Assembly: GCA_035945115.1 (NCBI GenBank)
Contig: DASZAN010000123.1
Location: 28,073-92,072 of the forward strand
From: Stellaceae bacterium
GTDB taxonomy: Bacteria; Pseudomonadota; Alphaproteobacteria; ATCC43930; CGMCC-115725
Reading direction: 5' to 3'
Length of the DNA: 64,000 bases
Positions within the stretch are counted from its first letter, which is position 1. Each line of letters starts with the position of its first letter. Of the stretch, positions 3,952 to 42,110 are shown in pieces. Position numbers and translations under genes: made by a program. The notes below the pieces were generated by a model, which saw only the letters and a list, made by a program, of their open reading frames with translations, did not search any database and had not been told where the DNA came from.

Positions 3952-5048
3952 ATGAGCTCACGCGTCTGTTGGCGCGCCGCATCCGCGCGACGGGGCCGTT
4001 GAGCATCGCCGAGTACATGACGGAGGCCCTCCACCATCCGACGCTCGGCTACTACGCCCGGCGGGATCCGATCGGCCGCGCCGGCGACTTCATCACCGCG
4101 CCCGAGGTGAGCCAGATCTTCGGTGAGCTCTTGGGGCTCTGGTGCGCCGACGTCTGGGAGCGGATGGGCCGCCCCGATCCGGTCATCCTCGCCGAACTCG
4201 GCCCCGGACACGGCAGCTTGATGGCGGACGCGCTCCGCGCGCTCCGCGTGGCGCCGCACTTCCGCCGGGCGCTGCGGCTTCACCTCGTCGAGGCGAGCGC
4301 GATGTTGCGCCGCCGGCAGGCGGAAAAGCTCGGTGGCGCCGAGCCCGTCTGGCATGACGATCTTACGCGCCTTCCCGACGGACCGCTCATCTTGATCGCG
4401 AACGAGTTCCTCGACGCGCTGCCGATCCGGCAATTCGTGCGCGGCGCATCGGGTTGGCACGAGCGGCGCGTGGTGCTCGCCGAGGACGGCGAGCGCCTGG
4501 CCTTCGCGGTCGATAGCGCGCCGAGCCTCGCGCCGGCGCTCGCCCCGCCGGCCCTGCAATCGGCCCCGCCCGGCAGCATCTGGGAGATATGCCCGGCGGC
4601 GACGACGATGGGCGCCACCCCCGGCGCACGATTGAAGGGGCAAGGCGGAGTCGCGCTCTTCATCGATTACGGCTATGTCGCGAACGCCGGCGGCGACACG
4701 CTACAAGCGCTGAAGCAGCATCGACGCCACGACGTGCTCGCGGATCCCGGCGACGCCGATCTCACCGCCCATGTCGACTTCGCCGCCGTCGCCGCCGCCG
4801 CGGTCCAAGCCGGCGCGCGCGCCTTCGGCCCCGTGAGCCAAGCCGCATTTTTGAGGGCGCTCGGGGCGAAGGAACGCGCGGCGCAATTGCGTAAGCAGGC
4901 AACGCCGGCTCAAGCGGCGGCGATCGAGAGCGGGTGTCGTCGCTTGTTAGACGAGAACGAGATGGGCACGCTCTTCAAGGCCCTCGCCATCGTCGATCCC
5001 AAGCTCGGCGTACCCGCGGGCTTCACGGAGGAAAGACCGCCGTGCTGA
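3948..5048 (+). CDS. class I SAM-dependent methyltransferase, MidA/NDUFAF7 family (DUF185)
   Basis: LGYYARRDPIGRAGDFITAPEVSQIFGELLGLW is the characteristic MidA N-terminus. The gene overlaps the lgt stop. Confidence 0.75.
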   Translation: MNELTRLLARRIRATGPLSIAEYMTEALHHPTLGYYARRDPIGRAGDFITAPEVSQIFGELLGLWCADVWERMGRPDPVILAELGPGHGSLMADALRALRVAPHFRRALRLHLVEASAMLRRRQAEKLGGAEPVWHDDLTRLPDGPLILIANEFLDALPIRQFVRGASGWHERRVVLAEDGERLAFAVDSAPSLAPALAPPALQSAPPGSIWEICPAATTMGATPGARLKGQGGVALFIDYGYVANAGGDTLQALKQHRRHDVLADPGDADLTAHVDFAAVAAAAVQAGARAFGPVSQAAFLRALGAKERAAQLRKQATPAQAAAIESGCRRLLDENEMGTLFKALAIVDPKLGVPAGFTEERPPC

Positions 5049-6624: not shown

Positions 6625-7407
6625 TTAAGCCTCGCGCCGGAACGGATTGCGCAAGACGCCGATGCCGGTGATCTCGATCTCGACCACGTCGCCGGATTGG
6701 AGGTTCGGCGAGGTGCCGTCGGTGCCCATCCAGACGACATCGCCGGGGTAGAGCGTGAGATAGCGGCTCATCGCGCTGAGATATCGCGCGACGCCGAACA
6801 ACATCGCGTTCGTGGGAAAGCGCAGCGTCTCCTCGCCGTTGACGCGGACGATGGTCTGGAGGTCGTCGAGATCGACCTCGGTCTCGATCCACGGACCCAT
6901 CGGCTTGAAGGTGTCGGTGTTCTTGGCCCGCCACAGCGTGCGATCCGAGCGCTGCCAGGTGCGTTCGCTGACATCGTTGCCGATGGTGTAGCCGAGCACG
7001 CATGAGAGTGCGTCCGCCTCGGAGAGATGCTTTGCCTTCTTGCCGATCACGACCACCAACTCGCCTTCGTACTGAACCTTGTCGCTCGCATCGCGCGGGA
7101 TGATGACGGTCTCGCCGGCGGCGATGAGCGCGTTGTTGGCGCGGTAACCGATATCGGGTTGCTTCGGCAGCTCCGGCGGCACGCCACGCTTCCGCGCCTG
7201 CTCGAGTACGTGGGCGCTGTAATTGAGCCCGGCGCAATAGAAGGTGCGGGGGATGACGGGCACCTCAATCTTGACGCCGGCGAGCGCGTGGCTCCTCGAC
7301 GTCCGCGCGTAGCCGGCGAAGGGATCGCCTGCCACTTCGGCGATGCGCTCGCCTTCGAGGATGCCATAGGCGGTCTTGCTGTTCGCGGTGAATCGGATCC
7401 AGCGCAT
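6625..7407 (-). CDS. fumarylacetoacetate hydrolase (FAH) family protein
   Basis: FAH-fold signature (GLNYSAH, GELVVVIGKK, GTDGTSP). The start was set at MRWIRF. Confidence 0.8.
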   Translation of the reverse strand: MRWIRFTANSKTAYGILEGERIAEVAGDPFAGYARTSRSHALAGVKIEVPVIPRTFYCAGLNYSAHVLEQARKRGVPPELPKQPDIGYRANNALIAAGETVIIPRDASDKVQYEGELVVVIGKKAKHLSEADALSCVLGYTIGNDVSERTWQRSDRTLWRAKNTDTFKPMGPWIETEVDLDDLQTIVRVNGEETLRFPTNAMLFGVARYLSAMSRYLTLYPGDVVWMGTDGTSPNLQSGDVVEIEITGIGVLRNPFRREA

Positions 7408-7467
7408 GATCACCACCTCGTGCGCCGATGGTAGCGCATCTTAGCGGCAGCGACAGCGCATGCCGGT

Positions 7468-8685
7468 TTATGGCGGGTTCGACGAGGTCGCGCTCAACAA
7501 CCCCGCGAGCCGCGCGATGCCCTCGCCGATCGTCGCTTCGTCGGCGCGGGAGAAGCTGAGGCGGAGCGTGTTGGCACCGCTGCCGTCGGCGTGAAAGGCG
7601 CGGCCGGGGACGAAGGCGACGCGGGCTTCTTTGACGGCGCGCTCAAGCAGCTGCGCGGCATCGATCTCCGCCGGCAAGGTGAGCCAGAGGAACATGCCGC
7701 CTTGGGGCTTCGTCCATTGCACACCCGGCGGCATCTCGGCGGCGAGCGCTTGCAGCATGGCGTCGCGGCGCGCGCGGTAGGTGGCGCGAATGGGCGCAAT
7801 ATGCGCCGGCAGCACCTCTTGCACCACCTCGTGCATCACCATCTGGCTCAGCGTGGGCGTGTGGAGATCGCTTGCCTGCTTGATGAGGACGAGCCGGCGG
7901 ATCACCGGCAGCGGCGCCGCCACCCAGCCGAGGCGCAAGCCCGGCACCACCGTCTTCGAAAACGTGCCGCAATAAAGGACGCGGCCTTGATCGATGCCGC
8001 CCCTGCGCGCTGCCTCGAGCGCGAGGAGCGCCGGAACCGCGGTGCCGTCGTAGCGAAGCGCTTCGTAGGCGGCGTCCTCGATCACCGGCACGTCGGCGGT
8101 CGCGAGCGCATCGAGCAGCGCCCGGCGCTCCGCGGCATCCAGACTCTCGCCGGTGGGATTGGCGAAGCTCGGCATGACATAAGCGAGCGCGGTGCGGCCG
8201 CGGCCGCTCGTCACCGGCGCCGGCCGATTGTCGCCGCGCCGCGGCAGGGGTGCATAGACGGGCTCGTAAGCGCTCATCGCCTGCAGCGCGCCAAGGTATG
8301 TGGGACGCGCCACCAGCACGGTGTCGCCAGCGCCGATGAAGAGCTTGGCGATGAAGTCGAGCGCCTGTTGCGAGCCGCTGGTGATGAAGATGTGCTCGAC
8401 GGTGCACGGCGCGCCGAGCGTGGTCATGTATTGGGCGATCCATTCGCGGAGCGGCCGATAGCCTTCGCTCGGCGAATATTGCAGTGCCGCCGCGGCGCGT
8501 TCGGACTCGCCGAGAATACGGTGATGAGCGGCCGCGATGGCTGGCACCGGAAAGAGCGCGGGATCGGGAATGCCGCCGGCAAAGGAAATGATGTCGGGCT
8601 GGTCGAGCAGCTTCAGCAGCTCGCGGATTTCCGAGGCGACCATGCCGCGCGCGCGGGCGGCGTAACGTTGCTCCCAAGCGGTCAT
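7468..8685 (-). CDS. PLP-dependent aminotransferase (class I/II, AAT-like)
   Basis: Sequence SEGYRPLREWIAQYM ... SFSKTVVPGLRLGWVAAP gives a PLP-binding lysine context. The start is at MTAWEQRYA. Confidence 0.75.
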   Translation of the reverse strand: MTAWEQRYAARARGMVASEIRELLKLLDQPDIISFAGGIPDPALFPVPAIAAAHHRILGESERAAAALQYSPSEGYRPLREWIAQYMTTLGAPCTVEHIFITSGSQQALDFIAKLFIGAGDTVLVARPTYLGALQAMSAYEPVYAPLPRRGDNRPAPVTSGRGRTALAYVMPSFANPTGESLDAAERRALLDALATADVPVIEDAAYEALRYDGTAVPALLALEAARRGGIDQGRVLYCGTFSKTVVPGLRLGWVAAPLPVIRRLVLIKQASDLHTPTLSQMVMHEVVQEVLPAHIAPIRATYRARRDAMLQALAAEMPPGVQWTKPQGGMFLWLTLPAEIDAAQLLERAVKEARVAFVPGRAFHADGSGANTLRLSFSRADEATIGEGIARLAGLLSATSSNPP

Positions 8686-36084: not shown

Positions 36085-37236
36085 TCACGCCGGCTCGGAT
36101 GCCTTGAGGCGTATGAGCTTGCTCAGGAGGGCGTCGAAGCCCTGACCCTCGCCGGCGTGGAGGTCGATCCGACCCACCTTCTCGACCAGCCGCTCGAGGC
36201 TCTCGAGCTCCTTGAGCCTGAGGAGAAGCGGGTTCTCCTCCATGAGCTTGGCGGTGTTGAGGAGCGAGCGCGTCGCCGCGGTCTCTTCCTGTCGGCGGAT
36301 CAAGTTGGCCTTGGCCATCCGCTCCGCCTCCACCACCTTGTTCACGAGCTCGCGGATCTCGCCGGGAAGGATCACATCCTTCACGCCGAGCTCAGTCACC
36401 TCGATGCCGGTCTCGACCAGACGCTCGCGCACATAGGCGCGCAGCTCCGCATCGAGCACGCTCTTGGCCGACAGCACCTCGTCGAGCGTGCGCGCCGCAA
36501 CTGCCTCGCGGATCGCGAACTGCACGAGCCGGTAGAGCCAGCCATCGACGTCGACGACCGCGCTCACCGCGCGCTCGGGATCGACGATCCGGCGAAGCGC
36601 CGTCAAGGTCACGCGCAGTGCGATGCGATCCTTGGTGAGCATCTCCTGCGCCGTGATCTCGACCGCCTGTGGCCGGAGATCGAGACGCTTCACCTCGACC
36701 TTGCGGTTGACCGACCAGTAGGCGTGCCGGCCAGGCGCGAGCCGCTCCACGAGCCGGCCCTCGACGTAGAGGAGGCCCGCCTCGTGGTTCTCGACCACCG
36801 TCTCGGCGAGATAGGGGTTACGCGCCCGCTCGACCAGCGCCAGATGCTGCGGTGCTACCTTCGGATCGCGTGCGACGTCGATGCGCTCGACCTCGACCGT
36901 GGTCGCGACCTTCCAGTAGGCGCGGAGCTGCCACGGGCCAATGAGCTGCGCTGGCCGACCGTCGAGGCTGATGATTGCGACCTCGTCGGCACGCGTCTCG
37001 ACCGCCGTGAAGAGCTCGAGCGCGATGTCCGGCCGCTCGGCCTTGATCACGGCGTAGCGCTCTGGCGGGAACTCGGTGCGCACGACCGGGAAGGTCTCGA
37101 CCTTGAGCTCGCCAAGCGGATCAAAGACGCGGTGACGGCCCGGCGGCAGCACGCGCTCGAGCCGACCGTTGCGCAGCAGAAACGCGCGCTCGCCGTCCTT
37201 AACGATCACCTGCAACACGACAAGGTACCTGGTCAT
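36085..37236 (-). CDS. SPFH/band-7 domain protein
   Basis: Start at MTRYLVVLQVIVKDGERAFLLRNG, then the SPFH core and a long coiled-coil tail. Confidence 0.7.
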   Translation of the reverse strand: MTRYLVVLQVIVKDGERAFLLRNGRLERVLPPGRHRVFDPLGELKVETFPVVRTEFPPERYAVIKAERPDIALELFTAVETRADEVAIISLDGRPAQLIGPWQLRAYWKVATTVEVERIDVARDPKVAPQHLALVERARNPYLAETVVENHEAGLLYVEGRLVERLAPGRHAYWSVNRKVEVKRLDLRPQAVEITAQEMLTKDRIALRVTLTALRRIVDPERAVSAVVDVDGWLYRLVQFAIREAVAARTLDEVLSAKSVLDAELRAYVRERLVETGIEVTELGVKDVILPGEIRELVNKVVEAERMAKANLIRRQEETAATRSLLNTAKLMEENPLLLRLKELESLERLVEKVGRIDLHAGEGQGFDALLSKLIRLKASEPA

Positions 37237-37562
37237 GACACTCTCCACACTTGGCTGCGCGACGGATTTCGCGCGGCTGGCTTCGGATCGAGGAGGGTGG
37301 GTTCCGGACGCGTCTTCCCGCGGGAGGCGGCGGGCCGGGGCTTGAGCCGCACGGGCGGCGGGCACACGTCCCCGCCGTCAGCTCAAGGCATGACGAGCGA
37401 AAGCGCTACCCGACGCCCGCGCGGGCGATATCCACCCCGGCGCAGGGCCGTTCCAACGGTGTCTGGTACGGGCAAGAGGCCTTTCGGCCAAACGACCGGA
37501 CCGCGACTGAAGCGCGCGTCCGGTCCCCCTCAGAGGTGTTCAGTTTTCCAGGCTGAACCGGC

Positions 37563-37636
37563 GCGTAGGAGCGGGAGTCGAACCCGCGACCCGATGCTTA
37601 AAGGGCATCTGCTCTAACCACCTGAGCTATCCTCGT
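37563..37636 (-). pseudogene. tRNA-Lys(UUU)-like gene with a 1-nt defect in the 5' acceptor strand
   Basis: The reverse complement folds as a tRNA (D arm gctc/gagc, anticodon loop CTTTAAG, T arm gcggg-ttcgact-cccgc). However, the 5' acceptor reads cgaggat where cgtagga is needed to pair with the 3' strand. Confidence 0.45.
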
Positions 37637-37639
37637 TTG

Positions 37640-37707
37640 TGCAACCGATCGGACTCGAACCGATGCCTCCGGGTTTCCCCGGCGCTCTTCCCTTGAGCTA
37701 CGATCGC
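37640..37707 (-). pseudogene. tRNA-like gene (Phe-GAA-like) with a truncated anticodon arm
   Basis: Good acceptor (gcgatcg/cggttgc with GU pairs), D arm and T arm are present. The anticodon region is only ccggg-gaaa-cccgg, 3 nt short. Confidence 0.4.
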
Positions 37708-38234
37708 GGCCTTCGTTCAGCGGAACACGAAACGCACAGAGTGCGATCGCGCCAGCCGGGACCCAACGAACCCGGACACGAAGCCGAGCGAAGGGAGCGC
37801 GCTTGTACATGAGTCGCAATCGGCGCACAAGGTGAAAAACGCGCACGACAATTGCTTTCTTTTTCGACGGTGAGAAATTTTCTCGCGACGAGGCCAAAAC
37901 GACCGCTCCATGAAATGTGCAAATGCGCCGTTCATGAAATTCTGTGCTGGAAATTCGAAGACCGTCTGCCGTTCTGAATTAGGAAAAGCCGCCCGATGAA
38001 AAAAATTTTTTGCGAAATGGATTGCAAGTGCCGCGTCGTCCGTTCATATCTAACGCCATGACACAGAGACTGAACATATCATTCGCCAGGACTGCCGCCA
38101 TGTTAGTGGCGACGCGGCCGTGGTATTGCGCGCGCCAATCGCGACCCGAACGTAAATTCGGGACGCGGCACGGCAGCAGCGACGGAGATTCAGCCGGGTG
38201 AGTGCACCCGCATCGACCGAAAGGTTGACTGAAC

Positions 38235-38270
38235 CCCGCCGCGCGCAAGCCCGAGCGGGGTTTTTCATTG
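38235..38270 (+). terminator. rho-independent terminator
   Basis: ccccgc-(15 nt)-gcgggg hairpin followed by TTTTT, sitting in a low-GC segment. Confidence 0.5.
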
Positions 38271-38399
38271 CGGTTTTTCAATGGGCCGACTTGTAGTCGT
38301 GTGGGCTCAGACCCACCTTTGCGCTCAAATTTGGGCGGGCTGGTTTCAAGCGGTCGGATCGAGAGGAGACAGCCATCTCCTCTCGTTCGTCAATTTTTC

Positions 38400-38470
38400 G
38401 GGCCGAGCGCTGGGCGCGGCTGATCCTTGCAAGATCGGAGCGCTGAGTTCGATTCTCAGTCGGTCCACCA
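38400..38470 (+). tRNA. tRNA-Ala(UGC)
   Basis: Acceptor gggccga/tcggtcc, anticodon stem-loop tgatc-CTTGCAA-gatcg, T arm ctgag-ttcgatt-ctcag, CCA encoded. The D arm is short. Confidence 0.6.
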
Positions 38471-38545
38471 GCCTTCGCTCGCTTCGCGAGCTACGGCTCG
38501 GCAAGCCAGGCTCGATTTGACCAGCTAAGCGAGCGAAGGCTGCCG
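38471..38545. repeat. long perfect hairpin (12-bp stem gccttcgctcgc / gcgagcgaaggc) directly after tRNA-Ala
   Basis: Inverted repeat read directly from the sequence. Confidence 0.6.
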
Positions 38546-38607
38546 CGCCGTAGCCCAAAGGGCGGAGGCGGGCTGCTGCCGTGAGCTACCAGAGCAACGA
38601 CATTGGC

Positions 38608-38847
38608 ATGACCTACGTCTATATTCTCCAAAGCATGCAACGGCTCGAGCGGTTTTACGTCGGGGTGACAGCCGACTTTAGATCTCGTCTTCGGAGGCAC
38701 AACGCGGGTGAAGTGTCGCATACGTCGAAATATACGCCTTGGGCGGTGAAGACCTATATCGCGTTTTCGGATGAGACGCAGGCCTATGCGTTCGAGAAAT
38801 ATCTCAAATCGCCGTCCGGAAGGGCCTTTGCGAAGAAGCGTCTTTGA
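38608..38847 (+). CDS. GIY-YIG nuclease family protein (YhbQ/Slx1-like, about 79 aa)
   Basis: MTYVYILQS...RFYVGVTADFRSRLRRHNAGEVSHTSKYTPWAV...FSDETQAYAFEKYLK is a textbook GIY-YIG core. Confidence 0.75.
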   Translation: MTYVYILQSMQRLERFYVGVTADFRSRLRRHNAGEVSHTSKYTPWAVKTYIAFSDETQAYAFEKYLKSPSGRAFAKKRL

Positions 38848-38890
38848 TCGAACGACAAGCCCAGGACAAAACTGGGCACTTACACCGCTG

Positions 38891-39352
38891 CTACTGCCAC
38901 GTTCGTATCTCGTGCAGCCGCGGATCACCCATGTAGATCGCGTCAATGAGCGCGAACACTTGCGGTGCAAGCGGTGTTCCGATGATCTCCGACCGCTTGA
39001 GCGCCGAGTCTGCGAGGTCGCCGTCAGAGGTCAGACGACCTTGAGCGTCAACAACCATGAACTGAGGCGATCCCTCGACAATTCTGTAGTCGAGCGCGAC
39101 GGCATAACGGTCCTGCTTTGTCGCGGAAGCTCCCCACTTTCCAAGTATCAAATCGAAACTTGCGCCGTGATCGGGACGTTGCTCCGCCCAGCCGACGAAG
39201 TACGCGGCCACTGCCGCGCCGCCCCTGTGGATGAGACCCCAGACGCGTTTGGTAGTCGAGCCGCAACAATCACAATGTCCATCGCTCGTGCCACTTTGCT
39301 CGACCTCGAAAGATCGCCAATCGACCGGCCCGTCATTTGGAAGCTCAGACAC
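38891..39352 (-). CDS. hypothetical protein (contains an HCDCCG Cys-rich motif)
   Basis: A 153-aa ORF in a lower-GC segment between the GIY-YIG gene and the tRNA array. No family recognised. Confidence 0.45.
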   Translation of the reverse strand: MSELPNDGPVDWRSFEVEQSGTSDGHCDCCGSTTKRVWGLIHRGGAAVAAYFVGWAEQRPDHGASFDLILGKWGASATKQDRYAVALDYRIVEGSPQFMVVDAQGRLTSDGDLADSALKRSEIIGTPLAPQVFALIDAIYMGDPRLHEIRTWQ

Positions 39353-39494
39353 TTAGCGCTTCGCAGCTAGCCGTTTATCACGTTGCGAGTATAGCTAACT
39401 TCGTGAAGTTAACAGACATCATTTCTGCGTCTGAGCGATCTCTTGGTCGGTATGGGCAGTTCGAAAATCCAGTGCCCAATTGGTCCACCAATTC

Positions 39495-39568
39495 GCGGGC
39501 ATAGCTCAACGGCAGAGCATTGCGTTGCCAACGCAAAGACGAGGGTTCGAGTCCCCCTGTCCGCTCCA
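39495..39568 (+). tRNA. tRNA-Gly(GCC)
   Basis: gcgggca...TTGCCAA...ggttcgagtcc...tgtccgc-t-CCA. Confidence 0.8.
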
Positions 39569-39572
39569 TTTC

Positions 39573-39667
39573 GGTTGTCGGCTCTGGTGAGCGGGTGCGC
39601 CTTATAAGCGCGCGAGAGCGGCTGGACGAGCTGCGACGGGTTGGTTCGATCCCAACGACAACCACCA
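39573..39667 (+). tRNA. type-II (long variable arm) tRNA, anticodon uncertain; loop CTTATAA would give UAU
   Basis: 95 nt. Acceptor ggttgtc/gacaacc, T arm gttgg-ttcgatc-ccaac, CCA. The anticodon stem tgcgc/gcgcg has the loop cttataa. Confidence 0.5.
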
Positions 39668-39671
39668 TTGC

Positions 39672-39743
39672 TGCGGGGTGGCACGGTGCCCGCGTCGGCT
39701 CATAACCGGCGTCGCGTCCGTTCGACTCGGACCTCCGCAACCA
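39672..39743 (+). tRNA. tRNA-Met/Ile2 (CAU) with a reduced D arm
   Basis: Only 72 nt including CCA. Anticodon stem-loop gtcgg-CTCATAA-ccggc and T arm gtccg-ttcgact-cggac. Confidence 0.6.
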
Positions 39744-39746
39744 CTT

Positions 39747-39819
39747 GCCTTTCTGGTGTAGATGGTCTGCACGCCTGTCTGAAGAACAGGAGGTCTCTGA
39801 TCGTTACAGAGGGAAGGCG
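39747..39819 (+). tRNA. tRNA-Phe(GAA)-like with a non-canonical T loop (ATCGTTA) and no CCA
   Basis: Acceptor gcctttc/ggaaggc, anticodon stem-loop cctgt-CTGAAGA-acagg. Confidence 0.45.
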
Positions 39820-39821
39820 CC

Positions 39822-39897
39822 GCGGCGCTTGTAGTTTGGTGACTGCCTTAGCCTTCCAAGCTAATGAGGGCGGGTTCGATTCCCCCGCGCCGCTCCA
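39822..39897 (+). tRNA. tRNA-Gly(UCC)
   Basis: Acceptor gcggcgc/gcgccgc, anticodon stem-loop ttagc-CTTCCAA-gctaa, CCA. Confidence 0.75.
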
Positions 39898-39904
39898 GTT
39901 TCAT

Positions 39905-39981
39905 TCCCAGCGGTCCCCATTGGCAGGGGAACGAGACTGTTAATCTCGTCGCTCCAGGTTCGAATCCTGGGCTGGGAGCCA
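39905..39981 (+). tRNA. tRNA-Asn(GUU)
   Basis: Acceptor tcccagc/gctggga, anticodon stem-loop cgaga-CTGTTAA-tctcg, T arm ccagg-ttcgaat-cctgg, CCA. Confidence 0.8.
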
Positions 39982-40056
39982 TTTAAGCCCGAGCTGAAGC
40001 CAGCCGCCCGGTCTCCAAAACCGCGGCGCGTGGGAGCGTTACCTACCGGGCGTGCC
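39982..40056 (+). other. degenerate tRNA-sized spacer (possible Trp-CCA-like anticodon hairpin cggt-CTCCAAA-accg)
   Basis: 75 nt between two tRNAs. No canonical T loop or acceptor pairing could be found. Confidence 0.2.
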
Positions 40057-40132
40057 AGTGCCGTGGCGGAGTGGTCATCGCCGGGGTCTGCAAAACCTCT
40101 CTATCTGGGTTCGATTCCCAGCGGCACTTCCA
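40057..40132 (+). tRNA. tRNA-Cys(GCA)
   Basis: Acceptor agtgccg/cggcact, anticodon stem-loop ggggt-CTGCAAA-acctc, T arm ctggg-ttcgatt-cccag, CCA. The first nucleotide overlaps the previous spacer's terminal A. Confidence 0.65.
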
Positions 40133-40133
40133 T

Positions 40134-40209
40134 GGTGGTCGTGGACCTCTGGCGAAGTCGGCGCGTCGTGACCGCGCTCAGGCGAGTTCGATTCTCGTCG
40201 GCCACCCCA
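40134..40209 (+). tRNA. tRNA-His(GUG) with an encoded G-1
   Basis: G-1 plus gtggtcg pairs with cggccac-C73. Anticodon stem-loop gcgcg-TCGTGAC-cgcgc; CCA. Confidence 0.75.
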
Positions 40210-40284
40210 GCCCGCATAGCACAGCAGCAGTGCAGCCGCCTTGTAAGCGGAAGGCCGTGGGTGCAAATCCTACTGCGGGCACCA
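40210..40284 (+). tRNA. tRNA-Tyr(GUA) with a SHORT variable arm (type I), T loop TGCAAAT
   Basis: Acceptor gcccgca/tgcgggc-A73, D arm gcac/gtgc, anticodon loop CTTGTAA, 75 nt. Confidence 0.55.
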
Positions 40285-40291
40285 GATTGAT

Positions 40292-40368
40292 GGCGGATTA
40301 CGGCGTGGTCGCCGCGGCCGGCTCTGACCCGGCTTGATTAGAGAGTTCGATTCTCTCGTCCGCTGCCA
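40292..40368 (+). tRNA. tRNA-Gln(CUG)
   Basis: Acceptor ggcggat/gtccgct (two GU pairs), anticodon stem-loop gccgg-CTCTGAC-ccggc, T arm gagag-ttcgatt-ctctc, CCA. Confidence 0.7.
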
Positions 40369-40370
40369 TG

Positions 40371-40442
40371 ACGCGGGGCCTCTAGCGAGGGCGCCGGCCT
40401 TTGAAGCCGGCCAGATCGGTGCGATCCCGGTACCCGCTGCCA
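40371..40442 (+). tRNA. tRNA-Gln(UUG)-like, with poorly paired acceptor and T loop TGCGATC
   Basis: Anticodon stem-loop ccggc-CTTTGAA-gccgg is perfect and CCA is present. The acceptor pairing could not be satisfied. Confidence 0.45.
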
Positions 40443-40447
40443 ATCAT

Positions 40448-40523
40448 GTCCCATTCGGCTACTGGCTAGGCCGCCACCCTCTCAAGGTGGAAAAGGCGGG
40501 ATCGAAACCCCCATGGGACACCA
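40448..40523 (+). tRNA. tRNA-Glu(CUC)
   Basis: Acceptor gtcccat/atgggac, anticodon stem-loop ccacc-CTCTCAA-ggtgg, CCA. Confidence 0.75.
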
Positions 40524-40527
40524 ATTC

Positions 40528-40604
40528 GCGCGCGTATCCCAACAGGCAGAGGAACAACGTTGAGAGCGTTGACAGTGCGCGTTCGAATCGCGCCGCGCGC
40601 ACCA
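40528..40604 (+). tRNA. tRNA-Leu(GAG) with a short (5-nt) variable arm
   Basis: Acceptor gcgcgcg/cgcgcgc-A73, anticodon stem-loop caacg-TTGAGAG-cgttg, T arm gcgcg-ttcgaat-cgcgc, 77 nt including CCA. Confidence 0.55.
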
Positions 40605-40606
40605 GA

Positions 40607-40684
40607 GGGCCGGTAGACCAATCGGTAGGAGTCATCGCGCTTAGAACGCGAGCAGTGTGGGTTCGAATCCCTCCCGGCCTACCA
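40607..40684 (+). tRNA. tRNA-Leu(UAG) with a short variable arm
   Basis: Acceptor gggccgg/ccggcct-A73, anticodon stem-loop tcgcg-CTTAGAA-cgcga, CCA. Confidence 0.55.
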
Positions 40685-40690
40685 TTTTAC

Positions 40691-40779
40691 GGAAGGTGCC
40701 GCTGAAAGGCCGGCAACTGGTCTTGAAAACCAGGGTAGCGTGATGAGCGCTAAGGGTTCGATTCCTTCACCTTCCGCCA
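40691..40779 (+). tRNA. tRNA-Ser(UGA), type II
   Basis: Acceptor ggaaggt/accttcc-G73, anticodon stem-loop ctggt-CTTGAAA-accag, a long variable arm, CCA. Confidence 0.8.
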
Positions 40780-40782
40780 TTT

Positions 40783-40870
40783 GGAGAGTCAATCGGCGAG
40801 GTCGCCGAGCGCGCCTGCTAAGCGCGGCGCCGTTCGCGTGGCCGGTGAGTTTCGATTACTCGGCTCTCCG
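40783..40870 (+). tRNA. tRNA-Ser(GCU), type II, no encoded CCA
   Basis: Acceptor ggagagt/gctctcc-G73, anticodon stem-loop cgcgc-CTGCTAA-gcgcg. Confidence 0.75.
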
Positions 40871-40872
40871 CC

Positions 40873-40946
40873 GCTCGTGTAGCTCAATGGCAGAGCAGCG
40901 CATTGGTATCGCGCCGATTGCGGTTCGATCCCGCACATGAGCTCCA
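40873..40946 (+). tRNA. tRNA-Thr(GGU)
   Basis: Acceptor gctcgtg/catgagc, D arm gctc-aatggca-gagc, anticodon loop TTGGTAT, T arm tgcgg-ttcgatc-ccgca, CCA. Confidence 0.8.
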
Positions 40947-40951
40947 GTTTC

Positions 40952-41044
40952 GGGAGACGCCAATAAGGTCGGGCTGGTGCCGACGCCGCGCTGTAAACGC
41001 GGTCCCGCACGGGCAAGAGGTTCGATTCCGTCCGTCTCCCACCA
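40952..41044 (+). tRNA. tRNA-Tyr(GUA), type II (canonical bacterial form)
   Basis: Acceptor gggagac/gtctccc-A73, anticodon stem-loop ccgcg-CTGTAAA-cgcgg, variable stem cccg/cggg, CCA. Confidence 0.65.
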
Positions 41045-41045
41045 T

Positions 41046-41118
41046 GGGCCTCTCGTCCAATGCAGGACACGCGCCTGATTAGCGTGGAATCGCAGTGCAA
41101 ATCTGCGGGGGCCTACCA
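41046..41118 (+). tRNA. tRNA-Ile(GAU), T loop TGCAAAT
   Basis: Acceptor gggcctc/ggggcct, D arm gtcc/ggac, anticodon loop CTGATTA, T arm cgcag-tgcaaat-ctgcg, CCA. Confidence 0.75.
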
Positions 41119-41124
41119 ATTCCG

Positions 41125-41199
41125 GGGTCGCTAACTCAACGGCAGAGTACCCGCCTCTTAAGCGGTGAGATCATGGTTCGAATCCATGGCGGCCCACCA
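41125..41199 (+). tRNA. tRNA-Lys(CUU)
   Basis: Acceptor gggtcgc/gcggccc, D arm actc/gagt, anticodon loop CTCTTAA, T arm catgg-ttcgaat-ccatg, CCA. Confidence 0.75.
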
Positions 41200-41251
41200 T
41201 TGCGCCGAGAGGCGCGGCATCGGCACAGGTCCGCGAGCAGCCGATGCACCC

Positions 41252-41326
41252 GCACTGTGAGCCATGTGGCCGAGGCGCTGCCCAGTCACGGCAGATAGAC
41301 GGGTTCGATCCCCGTACAGTGCGCCA
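41252..41326 (+). tRNA. tRNA-Asp(GUC) (anticodon loop CAGTCAC, A at position 33)
   Basis: Acceptor gcactgt/acagtgc-G73, anticodon stem ctgcc/ggcag, T arm acggg-ttcgatc-cccgt, CCA. Preceded by a 52-nt spacer containing two hairpins. Confidence 0.7.
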
Positions 41327-41333
41327 GTTTCGG

Positions 41334-41408
41334 CGGAGTGTAAGTCAGCAGCAGACGGCTTGCTTTGGAAGCAAGCAGACGGGGGTGCAAGTCCCTCCAC
41401 TCCGACCA
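41334..41408 (+). tRNA. tRNA-Pro(UGG), T loop TGCAAGT
   Basis: Acceptor cggagtg/cactccg, anticodon stem-loop cttgc-TTTGGAA-gcaag, CCA. Confidence 0.75.
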
Positions 41409-41411
41409 TTT

Positions 41412-41483
41412 GCCCTCGCCGCTGAGACGGAAGCGGGTTTCCTAAACCTGCGCAGCGCGGTTTGATTCCGCGCGGGGGCGCCA
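41412..41483 (+). tRNA. tRNA-Arg(CCU)
   Basis: Acceptor gccctcg/cgggggc, anticodon stem-loop cgggt-TTCCTAA-acctg, T arm cgcgg-tttgatt-ccgcg, CCA. Confidence 0.6.
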
Positions 41484-41484
41484 T

Positions 41485-41559
41485 GGGCGCTTAGTAGAGT
41501 GGTCATAACGGCTGGCCTACACCCAGCAGACGGTGGTTCGATTCCATCAGCGCCTACCA
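41485..41559 (+). tRNA. tRNA-Val(UAC) (anticodon loop CCTACAC)
   Basis: Acceptor gggcgct/agcgcct-A73, anticodon stem gctgg/ccagc, T arm ggtgg-ttcgatt-ccatc, CCA. Confidence 0.65.
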
Positions 41560-41562
41560 TTT

Positions 41563-41639
41563 TGCAGCGTTACGCTTCCGGTGAGGCGCCCCGCCTTTCA
41601 AGCGGGAGAGGCTCGGTTCGACTCCGGCACGCTGCACCA
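41563..41639 (+). tRNA. tRNA-Glu(UUC)
   Basis: Acceptor gcagcgt/acgctgc, anticodon stem-loop cccgc-CTTTCAA-gcggg, CCA. Confidence 0.75.
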
Positions 41640-41646
41640 ATTTCCT

Positions 41647-41718
41647 GGCCCACCCGCTGAGACGGACGCGGCGCTTCGAACGCCGCAATGCGGAGTTTGA
41701 TTCTCCGGTGGGCCCCCA
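41647..41718 (+). tRNA. tRNA-Arg(UCG)
   Basis: Acceptor ggcccac/gtgggcc, anticodon stem-loop cggcg-CTTCGAA-cgccg, T arm cggag-tttgatt-ctccg, CCA. Confidence 0.7.
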
Positions 41719-41719
41719 T

Positions 41720-41794
41720 GCGCACGCAGCTCGATGGACGAGCGCCGCTCTGCGAAGGCGGAGGCTGAAGGTTCGATTCCTTTCGTGCGCGCCA
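41720..41794 (+). tRNA. tRNA-Arg(GCG) (unusual anticodon; bacteria normally use ACG)
   Basis: Acceptor gcgcacg/cgtgcgc, D arm gctc-gatggac-gagc, anticodon stem-loop ccgct-CTGCGAA-ggcgg, CCA. Confidence 0.65.
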
Positions 41795-41799
41795 ATTCT

Positions 41800-41871
41800 G
41801 GTCACGTCCCGATGGATCGGGCATCCGCCTTCTAAGCGGGTTGAATGCGGGTTCGAATCCTGCCGTGACCG
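41800..41871 (+). tRNA. tRNA-Arg(UCU), no encoded CCA
   Basis: Acceptor ggtcacg/cgtgacc-G73, anticodon stem-loop tccgc-CTTCTAA-gcggg, T arm gcggg-ttcgaat-cctgc. Confidence 0.7.
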
Positions 41872-41873
41872 CC

Positions 41874-41951
41874 GCGCGACTAGCCCAATTGGCAGAGGCG
41901 GCTCGCTCAAAACGAGCAACGGTCTCGGTTCGAGTCCGAGGTCGCGCACCA
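41874..41951 (+). tRNA. tRNA-Leu(CAA) with a short variable arm
   Basis: Acceptor gcgcgac/gtcgcgc-A73, anticodon stem-loop gctcg-CTCAAAA-cgagc, T arm ctcgg-ttcgagt-ccgag, CCA. Confidence 0.6.
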
Positions 41952-41955
41952 CTGC

Positions 41956-42029
41956 GGGCGTATAGCTGGAAGGACAAGCTGCCGCCTTTTAAGCGGTTGA
42001 TGAGAGTTCGATTCTCTCTGCGCCCACCA
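41956..42029 (+). tRNA. tRNA-Lys(UUU)
   Basis: Acceptor gggcgta/tgcgccc-A73, anticodon stem-loop gccgc-CTTTTAA-gcggt, T arm gagag-ttcgatt-ctctc, CCA. Confidence 0.75.
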
Positions 42030-42034
42030 TTGCC

Positions 42035-42105
42035 GCTCCGGTCGTTCAACAGTAGGATGGCGCCCTCGTAGAGCGCAGATTTCGGTGCAACTCCGAACTG
42101 GAGCT
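42035..42105 (+). tRNA. tRNA-Thr(CGU), T loop TGCAACT, no CCA
   Basis: Acceptor gctccgg/ctggagc, anticodon stem-loop gcgcc-CTCGTAG-agcgc, T arm ttcgg-tgcaact-ccgaa. The last gene of the array. Confidence 0.55.
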
Positions 42106-42110
42106 CTTTC

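Follow-up and report, generated by a model that had tools for sequence, protein, structure and literature searches.

The segment that immediately precedes the tRNA array of this contig raises the question of whether its AT-rich stretch, tRNA-Ala gene, long hairpin, GIY-YIG nuclease gene and Cys-rich ORF form a single neighbourhood, and whether this neighbourhood points to a foreign origin of the array, as an earlier note had proposed. We examined this segment within the whole stretch of 64,000 nucleotides (the window) and against related loci. All of the listed features were found where they had been placed and are real, but they do not belong to one neighbourhood. The flagged 1.8 kb is best explained as a mosaic of four units that are unrelated to each other: the leader of a slipin gene, the control region of the tRNA array with its tRNA-Ala, a GIY-YIG cassette and the module of a 153-aa protein. 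We give a probability of about 0.6 to this explanation as a whole, its mechanism included. The anatomy of the region is well supported, and we infer from it that the cassette is expressed by read-through from the tRNA gene and that its nuclease promotes its spread between tRNA ends.

The low-GC stretch and its two control regions

The GC content of positions 37700 to 38300 was indeed low, at 0.561 compared with a window mean of 0.651 (sd 0.033), a value within the lowest 0.5% of 600-bp windows; across the 64-kb window, the 600 bp with the least GC were those from 37801 to 38400 (GC 0.543). This segment is not a single piece, however, since its left 140 bp belong to the slipin gene and are conserved in genomes without any array, whereas its core is the control region of the array.

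On the minus strand, positions 37237 to 37838 carry the conserved 5' leader and promoter region of a slipin (SPFH/Band 7) gene, the ORF of which occupies 36085-37236. A promoter-like site is present (TTGTGC at 37830-37825 and TACAAG at 37807-37802). Positions 37409-37838 showed 85% identity to the region upstream of the slipin orthologues in loci L153-L157, where the neighbouring genes are different and no array is present, and a four-way alignment of the leader with L162 and L163 showed a mean column identity of 79%. Judging from these alignments, 37237-37838 is part of the slipin unit and not of the tRNA array. Two tRNA-like structures, both absent from the list of the earlier note, were found on the minus strand of this leader. 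Structure 1 (37640-37707; Rfam tRNA, 54.3 bits) is a cloverleaf with a GAAA tetraloop instead of an anticodon loop, a G3:U70 pair and no CCA, and is also found in L153 (GCAA loop), L163 (GAGA) and L162. Structure 2 (37567-37633; Rfam tRNA, 48.3 bits over model positions 4-67 only) has a bulged acceptor stem and a 7-nt 'anticodon' loop that varies among relatives (UUU, UGU, GUU, GAU); it is kept in L153, L162 and L163, and ARAGORN made no call for it.

The two divergent promoter regions are separated by an AT-rich spacer (37839-37964), which falls between the block conserved with L153 and that conserved with L165 and L166, and for which no homologue was found among the fetched loci. The GAGAAATTTTCTC palindrome (37872-37884) and the two CATGAAAT copies (37909 and 37933) that had drawn attention are present, but all of them are located in this spacer and neither feature is in a part conserved in relatives. 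The CATGAAAT repeat is expected by chance, since about three 8-mers repeated once are expected within 600 nt (about 1.8e5 position pairs for 65,536 words).

On the plus strand, an A/T palindrome (37996-38015) precedes a promoter-like site of the tRNA-array operon (38022-38050) made of TTGCAA (38022-38027), 17 nt and CATATC (38045-38050). The counterpart of this site in L165 and L166 is TTGCAA and TATATC with the same spacing, and this conservation suggests that the site could act as the array promoter. It is followed by a structured leader RNA of about 340 nt (38058-38399), defined by its alignment to L165 and L166 and by fold energies. The segment 38205-38400 is about 96-97% identical to L165 by eye and the segment 38010-38200 about 80%. 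The leader contains a 47-codon ORF (38058-38201) in which third codon positions change least, and two hairpins followed by U-runs. The first, T1 (38232-38262, U-run to 38278), has a fold energy of -23.4 kcal/mol (z -2.9) and is followed by UUUUUCAUUGCGGUUUUUC; it agrees with the rho-independent terminator that had been recognized on the plus strand at 38235-38270, and it was missed by a simple terminator scanner with a loop limit of 8 nt. The second, T2 (38360-38385, U-run to 38399; -21.9 kcal/mol, z -3.1), was absent from the earlier list and ends one base before the first tRNA gene (38400). Both hairpins are GC-rich and conserved in L165 and L166, the pairing of T2 being kept by two compensatory changes, and both are predicted to be intrinsic terminators. 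The promoter-like site, the two terminators and tRNA-Ala are all conserved in L165 and L166, and in each they adjoin array tRNAs. The suggestion that the AT-rich stretch encodes an unannotated RNA feature was thus borne out, since two other contigs have the promoter-like site and the terminator-bearing structured leader in conserved form upstream of the same unusual tRNA-Ala and array. From these three sequences, the leader may be an attenuator that would keep the array silent unless termination is overcome.

The tRNA-Ala gene and the tRNA array

The tRNA-Ala(UGC) found by ARAGORN at 38400-38470 (plus strand) has a reduced D-arm, with a 4-bp stem, a 3-4-nt loop and no U8, while its T-arm is normal and its CCA is encoded. 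L165 and L166 retain the T-arm, the CCA, the alanine identity pair G3:U70 and an anticodon loop in which U33 is present and position 37 is a purine, and the small D-stem shows covariation there (GCGC/GCGC to GCAC/GUGC). The Rfam tRNA model (RF00005, threshold 29 bits) did not report this gene even at E<=10, because of its reduced D-arm. The earlier note had described this tRNA-Ala as isolated; it is in fact the first gene of the array operon, parted from tRNA-Gly by a 1,020-bp insertion. The order in the uninterrupted array of L166 is tRNA-Ala, ATTC, tRNA-Gly, Ile(TAT), Met and Phe. The rest of the array (39495-42106, plus strand, ARAGORN) contains 25 genes in 2.6 kb, 26 when tRNA-Ala is counted, and is an L-array, defined as a tRNA array unit of at least 20 tRNA genes at 2 or more per kb (PMC4758250).

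With its 25-26 tRNA genes in 2.6-3.7 kb, this array is similar to other long tRNA arrays. The trn operon of Anabaena remains silent in standard conditions and is induced by translational stress (PMC8421152, PMC10272220, PMC4758250), so regulated expression is expected for the array studied here. The two systems differ in that Anabaena relies on the repressor TrcR whereas we found a long, attenuator-like leader with two intrinsic terminators, and in that the first array gene is here a D-arm-reduced tRNA-Ala; none of the words attenuator, terminator or leader is used in PMC8421152.

The insertion between tRNA-Ala and tRNA-Gly

Comparison of the window with L166 showed that 1,020 bp (38471-39490) have been inserted between tRNA-Ala and tRNA-Gly, with the direct repeat GGTCCACCA on both sides. 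The left copy (38462-38470) is the 3' end of tRNA-Ala, and the right copy (39482-39490), which is followed by ATTC and tRNA-Gly (39495), represents the original Ala|Gly junction. In L166 this junction reads GGTCCACCA ATTC GCGGCGGTAGTTCAACGG, the same sequence as that given by combining the left and right junctions of the window. The homology of L165 and L166 to the window ends exactly at the CCA of tRNA-Ala, and the uninterrupted array of L166 has neither the GIY-YIG gene nor the 153-aa gene. The view that the GIY-YIG gene is insertion-like and tied to tRNA genes is therefore supported by this break of homology to relatives with an empty site. The same two genes had also been taken as evidence that the array is foreign, but both were inserted into the array later and are therefore uninformative about its origin. 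The insertion contains these two genes only, with no tyrosine or serine recombinase as in an integrase-borne tRNA island; no recombinase domain was found among the neighbouring genes and no integrase or phage gene within about 5 kb.

The right part of the insertion is the 153-aa protein module (38866-39490, minus strand), which comprises the ORF and its upstream region, ends in TTGGTCCACCA and was delimited by DNA identity to L002-L005. The Cys-rich ORF (38891-39352, minus strand) is a conserved gene, as proposed, with 122 homologues in which C27, C29 and C30 are invariant (CxCC motif), and its AF2 model (pLDDT 90) gave no specific fold match. In L002-L005 the DNA of the module is 82-90% identical and adjoins dnaG-rpoD-tRNA-Met or an EF-G-like gene, and no co-occurrence of this protein with tRNA arrays was found (0/40 loci). 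In L004 an 18-nt repeat of the tRNA-Met end flanks the module (16/18 positions matching). The 153-aa unit is a small mobile module with a copied tRNA 3' end and is unrelated to the GIY-YIG cassette. The 9-bp repeat seen here may belong to this module, the cassette having no target duplication of its own; no repeat of the tRNA end around the GIY-YIG cassette alone was found in the other loci. The 9-bp repeat at a tRNA 3' end, and the 18-nt repeat of the tRNA-Met end in L004, resemble the att-type duplication of genomic islets at tRNA 3' ends, but the insertion is tiny, there is no integrase, and elsewhere the cassette alone has no repeat.

The GIY-YIG nuclease gene

The gene at 38608-38847 (plus strand) encodes a 79-aa GIY-YIG protein of the minimal Slx1/UPF0213 type, which matched Pfam PF01541 over profile positions 2-74 of 78 with 52.2 bits (cut-off 22.6, E=7.9e-14). 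The NCBI annotation gives a protein of 88 aa starting from a GTG at 38581. In an alignment of 79 members, the catalytic motifs YVYIL, (F/H/Y)Y(V/I)G, R..L..HN and FE.YLK are conserved, and nearly invariant by eye. The best matches among solved structures were weak (E=0.035-0.07) and included SLX1 4XLG (E=0.035) and UPF0213 BH0048 1ZG2 (E=0.049). On this basis the protein, a predicted nuclease, belongs to the Slx1/UPF0213 (YhbQ-like) branch. It consists of a catalytic domain without any accessory domain; Pfam gave a sub-threshold T5orf172 match over the same residues and found no DNA-binding domain for a long target site. With no visible module for recognising tRNA gene ends, this 79-aa protein appears too small to find its own target.

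More than 2,888 clusters of homologues were obtained, and the family is also present in Acidobacteriota, Verrucomicrobiota and Nitrospirota. Its dN/dS of about 0.1 indicates that the gene is functional and under strong purifying selection. Synonymous sites are saturated between loci (dS>=1), so the cassettes are old residents and not recent arrivals; decayed copies were found in L107 and L109. Relatives were searched for in 50,697 phage records (tblastn, E<=1e-3), 72,556 plasmids (E<=1e-10) and IMG/VR, and none was found. These results and the assignment to the Slx1/UPF0213 branch contradict the earlier description of this protein as a phage-type homing enzyme.

The cassette leader and the tRNA 3' ends

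The GIY-YIG gene is part of a compact, promoter-less cassette of about 400 bp, whose family is present in at least several hundred species. The cassette consists of a structured leader of about 105 nt (38471-38575, plus strand), the 79-aa gene and an end close to the stop codon, the right boundary being known within about 35 nt. The leader is made of hairpin A (38471-38540), the near-invariant motif CUACGGCUCGGCAAGCC (38491-38507) and hairpin C (38542-38573). The perfect hairpin that the earlier note had seen at 38471-38545 is a piece of this conserved leader; it is real, but its perfect stem is of 14 bp and not 12. Between the convergent GIY-YIG and 153-aa genes is a small hairpin (GCCCAG-GACAAAA-CTGGGC, 38859-38877), which the scanner rated as terminator-like on the minus strand; its motif ACAAAACTGGGCAC is found after the GIY-YIG gene in L004/L005, L075, L078 and L082, and after tRNA-Met in L003.

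A covariance model of the leader, built from 32 other loci and leaving this window out, matched the window with 111.8 bits (E=1.3e-18), the only plus-strand match with E<0.1 in the 64 kb. The minus-strand match at the same position (38.2 bits, E=3e-5) is expected for a largely palindromic leader. The model gave 90 matches with E<=1e-3, all adjoining GIY-YIG ORFs (77/80 loci plus L004/L005), and no match in 14 control loci. The leader sequence is conserved far above the neutral level, its cells are 92.6-93.5% paired, and 12-13 pairs have double changes compared with 5.5-6.1 in shuffles (0/500). Hairpin A, the motif CU(A/U)CGGCUCGGCAAGCC and hairpin C, by which the family leader is defined, are all present in the window. 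The order of the modules is permutable, which argues against a compact ribozyme fold, and at E<=10 no Rfam family, ribozymes included, was detected in the leader except for weak chance matches to microRNA precursors.

The window junction, GGTCCACCA|GCCTTCGC at 38470/38471, showed that the first base of the leader immediately follows the CCA. A tRNA gene on the same strand ended 100-323 nt upstream of the GIY-YIG ORF in 69 of the 80 loci from other species, and these tRNAs fell into 11 anticodon classes; the chance expectation for such an upstream tRNA is about 0.1%. In 9 of the other 11 loci, a tRNA 3' end that is partial or cut by the contig edge lies directly before the leader. A tRNA 3' end thus directly precedes the cassette in 78/78 assessable loci, L141 and L149 being cut off, and the junction ACCA|GCCTTCGC was found in 55/69 loci. 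These 80 loci were the nearest relatives (>=65% identity) among at least 521 matches, so the tRNA-end rule is demonstrated within this subfamily only. The 69 complete tRNAs are single genes and never arrays, which does not agree with a link between GIY-YIG homologues and tRNA clusters in the 80 other genomes.

Within a single lineage, closely related GIY-YIG proteins can follow different tRNAs, which points to movement between tRNAs. In Bradyrhizobium, many species have the cassette at one and the same tRNA-Ala(GGC) locus, and much of the pattern in this genus is plain vertical descent. Presence or absence at orthologous sites, with a break of homology, was seen when the window was compared with L165/L166 (tRNA-Ala) and when L004/L005 were compared with L003/L158 (tRNA-Met). 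At this second site, an orthologous rpoD-tRNA-Met-153aa locus, L003 and L158 are empty whereas L004 and L005 carry a cassette that is 61% identical; from these sequences, the cassettes of the window and of L004/L005 appear to be independent insertions.

Proposed expression and spread of the cassette

No description of a GIY-YIG cassette at tRNA ends was found in the literature. Read-through from the tRNA gene into the cassette is plausible given the orientation of the cassette, the lack of T-runs (57 of the 69 spacers contain no stretch of at least four T) and the fact that no promoter was detected. Transcription from the tRNA promoter would then yield a tRNA-leader-mRNA precursor, in which the hairpin abutting the CCA and the second hairpin could allow separation of the tRNA from the mRNA and protect the 5' end of the latter, while the invariant motif next to the start codon could serve in translation control or protein binding. 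The nuclease may cut the ends of tRNA genes in a structure- or site-specific way, and such cuts would trigger recombination that places copies of the cassette behind other tRNA genes.

A different origin was suggested by the earlier note, in which the GIY-YIG gene is a phage-type homing endonuclease and, like the 153-aa gene and the low-GC DNA, is a sign that the array is an island brought in from a phage. The nuclease gene does adjoin 25 tRNA genes, and the region has the lowest GC of the window. The cassette also resembles SegB, a free-standing GIY-YIG homing endonuclease of T-even phages, in being a nuclease gene beside tRNA genes: SegB homologues often have a phage tRNA gene less than 1 kb away, and the enzyme recognizes a motif derived from the T-loop and cuts there, inside the tRNA gene, which provokes recombination that copies or amplifies the adjacent DNA (PMC13096335). 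However, SegB is phage-borne and has no fixed tRNA junction, whereas the cassette is chromosomal, starts at the base after the CCA and combines a bare 79-aa Slx1-type domain with a conserved structured leader. The 2006 classification (PMC1564403) assigns homing endonucleases to another branch of the superfamily, and the window protein is of the Slx1/UPF0213 and not of the homing endonuclease or UvrC type. The lack of matches in the searches of phage records (E<=1e-3), plasmids (E<=1e-10) and IMG/VR, the single chromosomal tRNAs that precede the homologues, the uninterrupted L166 array, the lack of arrays in the 40 loci of the 153-aa family and the lack of integrase or phage genes within about 5 kb largely refute an imported island, which we consider highly improbable. 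The nuclease could instead be a host gene, for instance for tRNA or RNA maturation or for repair at heavily transcribed tRNA genes, and its retention in tRNA operons would make its expression follow tRNA synthesis; the leader would be a processing or regulatory element, and the variety of tRNAs would come from old duplications and recombination between tRNA ends. The dN/dS and saturated dS indicate long-term retention under selection, and the conservation of the leader and the shared Bradyrhizobium locus agree with this explanation, as does the fusion of a Slx1-like domain to a TrmH-like tRNA methyltransferase, which suggested a role in RNA metabolism (Dunin-Horkawicz et al., PMC1564403). The same study described the 'Slx1 non-Eukaryota' class as vertically inherited housekeeping proteins and reported no link to tRNA genes. 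UPF0213 proteins (YhbQ of E. coli; BH0048, PDB 1ZG2) share the minimal domain without accessory domain and the GIY, YIG, Arg and Glu motifs, but the cassette gene differs in being promoter-less, in being joined to a tRNA 3' end by a leader and in being present or absent at orthologous sites, and its PDB matches are weak. Close relatives lack the cassette at the tRNA-Met and tRNA-Ala sites, so the GIY-YIG gene is dispensable and can be gained. The close copies behind different tRNAs within a lineage, the occurrence in Acidobacteriota, Verrucomicrobiota and Nitrospirota, the decayed copies and the interruption of an operon in the window also count against a host gene. The strong purifying selection on the protein and leader is equally compatible with a host function and a selfish one, and we regard the host gene as a possible but rather doubtful explanation.

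The leader could also act as DNA, its palindromes being extruded as hairpins or cruciforms and cut by the structure-specific Slx1-type nuclease, with a spread like that of REP/RAYT or single-strand IS200/IS605-like elements, which insert 3' of a short target, in this case the CCA. The exact left end is formed by hairpin A, a palindrome of 8-18 bp that is perfect or nearly so, and loops of the C-GAA-G type, which are unusually stable in DNA, recur. Elements of the IS200/IS605 type insert directly 3' of a fixed short sequence with no target duplication, as the cassette does. Leader modules are often tandemly duplicated or present on both sides of the ORF, and eukaryotic Slx1 cuts branched DNA (PMC1564403). 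The tolerance of G·U(T) pairs in the distal stem and the UNCG-type tetraloops (UACG/UUCG) point however to RNA, the leader is without exception on the strand of the tRNA transcript, and no dispersed leader without ORF was found. GIY-YIG enzymes hydrolyse DNA, and none is known to transpose it. An action of the leader as DNA is therefore improbable.

Expression as part of the tRNA transcript, the reading that we favour, has parallels among elements that occupy stable-RNA genes. The R2 retrotransposons in 28S rDNA, which encode a reverse transcriptase and an HDV-like ribozyme, and the rtT/tpr repeats behind E. coli tyrT are co-transcribed with the RNA gene that they occupy. The cassette is likewise a promoter-less unit behind a heavily transcribed stable-RNA gene, for which read-through and processing at the junction may be supposed. 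We tentatively suggest, as a possibility that we hold to be well short of established, that the cassette represents an undescribed class of minimal selfish elements of about 400 bp, without promoter or recombinase, which would have colonised the first base after the CCA across several phyla and would be expressed within the tRNA precursor, its leader RNA either freeing the tRNA cleanly or guiding the nuclease to tRNA ends. If this is true, the cassette would be a bacterial counterpart of the elements that live inside rRNA and tRNA genes and are co-transcribed with them.

A GIY-YIG nuclease gene attached to tRNA 3' ends

The 79-aa ORF at 38608-38847 of the window, which comes from a metagenome-assembled genome of the Stellaceae (Alphaproteobacteria), matched Pfam PF01541 (GIY-YIG). 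The NCBI call for this gene starts at a GTG at 38581 and gives 88 aa (38581-38847), 100% identical to an NCBI protein on a 92-kb Stellaceae contig; most homologues are 79 aa long, from an ATG. One genome per species was scanned with the 79-aa protein; this gave at least 521 relatives, of which we retained the best 80. These came from Rhizobium, Bradyrhizobium, Phenylobacterium, Rhizomicrobium and Stellaceae as well as from Acidobacteriota, Verrucomicrobiota and Nitrospirota.

Examination of these 80 loci showed that a tRNA gene of the same strand ended 100 to 323 nt (median 152) before the GIY-YIG ORF in 69 of them, and that all of these tRNAs were single genes. They were most often tRNA-Ala-GGC (31), Met (13), Val-TAC (7), Tyr (4), Ala-CGC (4) and Val-CAC (3), and more rarely Lys (2), Ile (2), Arg, Val-GAC and Leu (one each). 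At nine of the remaining 11 loci a tRNA 3' end, either partial or cut by a contig edge, stood directly before the cassette, that is, the unit of about 400 bp made of the GIY-YIG ORF and the structured leader that begins at the base after the tRNA CCA; the other two loci were cut off. At some of these nine loci the arrangement follows the later arrival of an island. Four homologous loci (L088, L096, L107 and L147) have only a partial tRNA 3' copy before the cassette, with an intact tRNA-Val 2.7 kb upstream in L107, and such loci show the pattern expected if a larger island had integrated into the tRNA gene after the cassette was already resident.

The junction ACCA|GCCTTCGC was found in 55 of the 69 loci. 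In two tRNA-Met loci, L089 (4826-4845) and L115 (4888-4906), the leader abuts the discriminator base of a tRNA without an encoded CCA (GGGCCCA|GCCTTCGC); apart from these two, ACCA precedes the leader in all other cassettes. Similarity between loci stops 0 to 35 nt from the GIY-YIG stop codon. The spacers between tRNA and ORF were mostly devoid of T-runs (57 of 69 had no run of four or more), so that nothing obvious would halt transcription arriving from the tRNA. A small hairpin with an ACAAAA loop (38859-38877; motif ACAAAACTGGGCAC) follows the GIY-YIG stop and was seen behind four different tRNAs, further sites being in L004 (about 1505-1535), L075 (5256), L078 (362) and L082 (5232). L003 has no GIY-YIG gene and carries this hairpin after tRNA-Met (about 690-720). 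The hairpin could be a leftover cassette end or a common terminator.

The solved structures that the nuclease matched best were SLX1 and BH0048 (UPF0213), each of them weakly. This puts it in the minimal class that Dunin-Horkawicz et al. 2006 named "Slx1 non-Eukaryota", a class held to be vertically inherited and for which one fusion to a tRNA methyltransferase was reported (PMC1564403).

The structured leader of the cassette

The leader contains three modules: a long hairpin beginning at position +1 (38471-38540), which is the perfect hairpin described in the earlier note, an almost invariant motif CU(A/U)CGGCUCGGCAAGCC, and a second hairpin with GAA internal loops (38542-38573). In 53 loci the motif lies within the first hairpin, and in 15 it stands immediately 5' of the start codon. 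In 35 sequences 92.6-93.5% of the cells were paired, and 12-13 pairs had changes on both sides versus 5.5-6.1 in shuffles (0/500), while shifting the structures by one to three columns reduced pairing to 29-47%. A covariance model built with the window left out scored the window at 111.8 bits and, over 855 kb of loci, gave 90 hits, every one adjoining a GIY-YIG ORF, and none in 14 control loci.

A helix designated S2:S3 (a UACG tetraloop stem) was rejected as a conserved element, having one compensatory change among the 35 sequences and one pair that fails in 10 of them. We also rejected the hairpin as a terminator of the tRNA-Ala, since it has no U-run and is kept as the left end of the cassette. 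The leader modules often occur in tandem duplicate in the spacers (L102, L143, L146, L134, L104, L148, L109 and L089) and are also found downstream of the GIY-YIG ORF (L074 3363-3476, L105 572-657 and L116 5244-5335). An Rfam search of 37400-39600 at E≤10 assigned neither the AT-rich leader nor the tRNA-Ala nor the cassette leader to any family, HDV-like, hatchet and other ribozymes included; the sole matches on the cassette hairpin were microRNA-like and due to chance.

Insertion at the Ala|Gly junction and the 153-aa module

The left junction of the window reads ...CAGTCGGTCCACCA|GCCTTCGC and the right one ...CCCAATTGGTCCACCA|ATTCGCGGGCATAGC, and the uninterrupted junction of L166, a relative of the array leader, reads ...CAGTCGGTCCACCA|ATTCGCGGCGGTAGT. 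After the CCA of its tRNA-Ala, L166 continues with ATTC and then tRNA-Gly(GCC), Ile(TAT), Met and Phe, the same order that starts the array of the window. This comparison indicates that 1,020 bp (38471-39490), bounded by the 9-bp repeat GGTCCACCA, were inserted in the Ala|Gly junction of the operon. The second relative, L165, breaks at the same CCA and has three unrelated genes before tRNA-Met and tRNA-Phe; this junction was hit on more than one occasion.

The insertion also carries the 153-aa module (38866-39490, minus strand). The 153-aa ORF is a genuine gene: its homologues number 122, and C27, C29 and C30 are invariant; a genome-contig scan with the protein gave no relative, and its structure model was confident without a specific match. 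Exact-sequence look-ups of this ORF and of the GIY-YIG ORF gave no match. The NCBI call for the 153-aa ORF (38891-39352) corresponds to a 106-aa version only (P0029), and in L001 one pipeline placed spurious ORFs across the 153-aa gene and array tRNAs (4243-4827 and 7027-7602).

The module was 82-90% identical to DNA in L002-L005 and L158, next to dnaG-rpoD-tRNA-Met in L003-L005 and L158 and to an EF-G-like gene in L002; remoter homologues of the protein are located between DUF1801 genes. It terminates in a copy of a tRNA 3' end, which in L003 is GGTCCACCA, the end of the array tRNA-Ala, even though tRNA-Met adjoins, and in L004 is a 16/18 copy of the tRNA-Met end. These copies at its boundary indicate that the 153-aa module also moves between tRNA ends. 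In L002 (620-1164, reverse) the closest relative of the 153-aa gene (93% identity) is convergent with the 3' end of the EF-G-like gene and not with a tRNA, and a pseudo tRNA end, GGTCCAGCC, is found on the far side of the 153-aa gene.

The AT-rich segment, the tRNA-Ala and the slipin leader

The GC content of 37700-38300 was 0.561 against a window mean of 0.651, within the lowest 0.5% of 600-bp windows, and 37801-38400 was the minimum-GC 600 bp across all 64 kb. ARAGORN called an array of 25 tRNA genes (39495-42106, plus strand), a "tRNA-Ala" found by this program only (38400-38470, plus strand) and an odd tRNA on the minus strand (37639-37707). The genes called around the region encode a solute-binding protein and an SPFH/Band 7 (slipin) protein, then an FAD oxidoreductase, OsmC and a dienelactone hydrolase, with no recombinase or phage gene among them. 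Two terminator-like hairpins were found on the plus strand, T1 (38235-38270; -23.4 kcal/mol, z -2.9), followed by U-runs, and T2 (38360-38399; -21.9 kcal/mol, z -3.1), which the earlier note had not listed. Two copies of CATGAAAT and a palindrome are present in the sole part of the region without a detected homologue; an 8-mer repeated once per 600 nt is the chance expectation.

When the 63-aa ORF at 38010-38201 was compared with 1.84 billion representative proteins, five matches emerged, evidently ORF calls on homologous DNA, and 37965-38470 of the window aligned in both readable contigs of these matches (L165 and L166). The three sequences share a promoter-like TTGCAA-N17-(C/T)ATATC, a leader of about 340 nt including both terminators (38058-38399) and then the same odd tRNA-Ala. 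In an alignment read by eye, identity to L165 was about 96-97% for the terminator-bearing stretch and about 80% for the 5' part, and RNAalifold predicted for the three leaders a chain of hairpins in which nine pairs, two of them in T2, are kept via double changes. By this comparison the AT-rich core is the putative control region of the array, and from conservation and position only we infer that its leader may be of the attenuator type. In the relatives the tRNA-Ala retains G3:U70, the UGC anticodon and the T-arm, and its miniature D-stem covaries (GCGC/GCGC to GCAC/GUGC); the Rfam tRNA model did not report the window copy at E≤10.

A 47-codon ORF opens at the predicted transcript start (window 38058-38201, L165 1389-1529, L166 225-368). 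It is open in all three sequences, ends at a shared position with TGA, TAA and TAG, respectively, contains a 3-nt indel that preserves the frame, and changes least at third codon positions. The 47/63-aa ORF was set aside as a protein gene because its matches are ORF calls over homologous DNA and third positions change least; it may be an attenuator leader peptide whose sequence is of little weight, or may be untranslated or a coincidence. An A/T palindrome of the GAAAATTTTC type (37996-38015), immediately 5' of the array promoter's -35 hexamer, is kept in L165 (about 1325-1345) and L166 and could serve as an operator or UP element; the GAGAAATTTTCTC of the earlier note (37872-37884), 125 bp farther upstream, is similar to it. 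The tRNAs of the array are often atypical: the Rfam tRNA threshold is reached by only 14 of the 25, the gene at 41563-41638 was called with an anticodon of 4 bases (tcaa), and tRNA-Ile(TAT) extends over 95 nt (39573-39667). The array has no Trp or Tyr tRNA, and Ala comes solely from the D-arm-reduced gene at 38400-38470.

At the left edge Rfam recognized two tRNA-like elements on the minus strand (37567-37633 and 37640-37707). Orthologues of the slipin gene (91% identity) are in wholly different neighbourhoods without any array, and the 430 bp upstream of them were 85% identical to 37409-37838 of the window, both tRNA-like elements included. Remoter copies, one labelled Candidatus Acidoferrum, kept a leader of about 600 nt with 79% mean column identity. 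This leader with its two tandem tRNA-like folds occupies 37237-37838 (minus strand) in the window, 4310-4932 in L153, 2330-3000 in L162 and 2344-3000 in L163. In the first element a GNRA tetraloop (GAAA, GCAA or GAGA) replaces the anticodon loop; in the second the "anticodon" varies freely and the acceptor stem is bulged. The conservation of this leader before array-less orthologues indicates that the first 140 bp of the flagged segment serve a native gene on the opposite strand as promoter and leader, and the two tRNA-like genes were rejected as members of the array. The surroundings of the slipin gene and its leader differed from one examined genome to the next (80-93% protein identity; a MAG labelled Candidatus Acidoferrum was among them); with synteny differing on both sides, no insertion boundaries of the array could be drawn from these orthologues. 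Our literature search, which covered few subscription journals, found nothing connecting tRNA-like folds with slipin genes.

Discussion

The tRNA-end cassette family is the most interesting result of this analysis. Empty sites were found in close relatives, at the tRNA-Ala in L165 and L166 and at the tRNA-Met in L003 and L158, and the orthologous tRNA-Met site of L004 and L005 holds a 61%-identical cassette, which points to two independent arrivals at a CCA beside the same 153-aa module. Within the Alphaproteobacteria, nucleases at least 78% identical follow tRNAs for Val, Tyr, Met and Lys, and within the Acidobacteriota they follow those for Val, Ile and Arg; decayed copies also count for mobility. 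A fast selfish cycle is opposed by the dN/dS of the nuclease, about 0.1 with synonymous sites saturated, and by the tRNA-Ala(GGC) copy, which looks vertically inherited across Bradyrhizobium. Taken together, the empty sites, tRNA switching, low dN/dS and vertical descent suggest a cassette that is old, constrained and gained just occasionally. Phage records, plasmids and IMG/VR yielded nothing that matched the nuclease, which argues that the cassette is not phage-borne, and a defence-system reading was dropped as neither protein could be given a meaningful family from NCBIfam or PADLOC. The closest functional analogue is SegB, a larger, phage-borne GIY-YIG homing enzyme whose cuts in tRNA genes fall at a T-loop motif and drive recombination nearby (PMC13096335). 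We infer the mechanism of the cassette throughout, and propose that the cassette represents a free-standing GIY-YIG gene whose targets are tRNA genes. The literature that we searched, most subscription journals being outside its coverage, contained no description of GIY-YIG genes located at the 3' ends of bacterial tRNAs, and the family is apparently undescribed; an earlier description is possible.

Each feature listed in the earlier note is present in the sequence. Its proposal of an RNA feature in the AT-rich DNA agrees with the conserved promoter-like site and terminator-bearing leader of L165 and L166, and that of an inserted, tRNA-linked nuclease gene with the position of the GIY-YIG gene in the 38471-39490 insertion behind tRNA-Ala. 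The phage type proposed for the nuclease did not stand against the phage, plasmid and IMG/VR records, nor did its link to tRNA arrays, the upstream tRNAs of the 69 loci being single; likewise, none of 40 loci with 153-aa homologues has an array. The nuclease and the Cys-rich gene had been taken as consistent with a foreign origin of the array, but they are later insertions and are therefore uninformative on its origin.

For the window the practical outcome is a corrected map of the region, and the attenuator, if true, would offer a route to ask how supernumerary tRNA operons get switched on. Thousands of small stand-alone GIY-YIG genes carry the annotation "GIY-YIG nuclease family protein" with no role assigned. 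One large subfamily fixed by a structured leader to exact tRNA 3' ends provides annotators with a simple rule and a covariance model, and turns these genes into a testable system in which it can now be asked what recognises tRNA gene ends, whether a single precursor contains both the tRNA and the nuclease mRNA, and whether cuts by the nuclease at tRNA ends drive the rearrangements that are common there.
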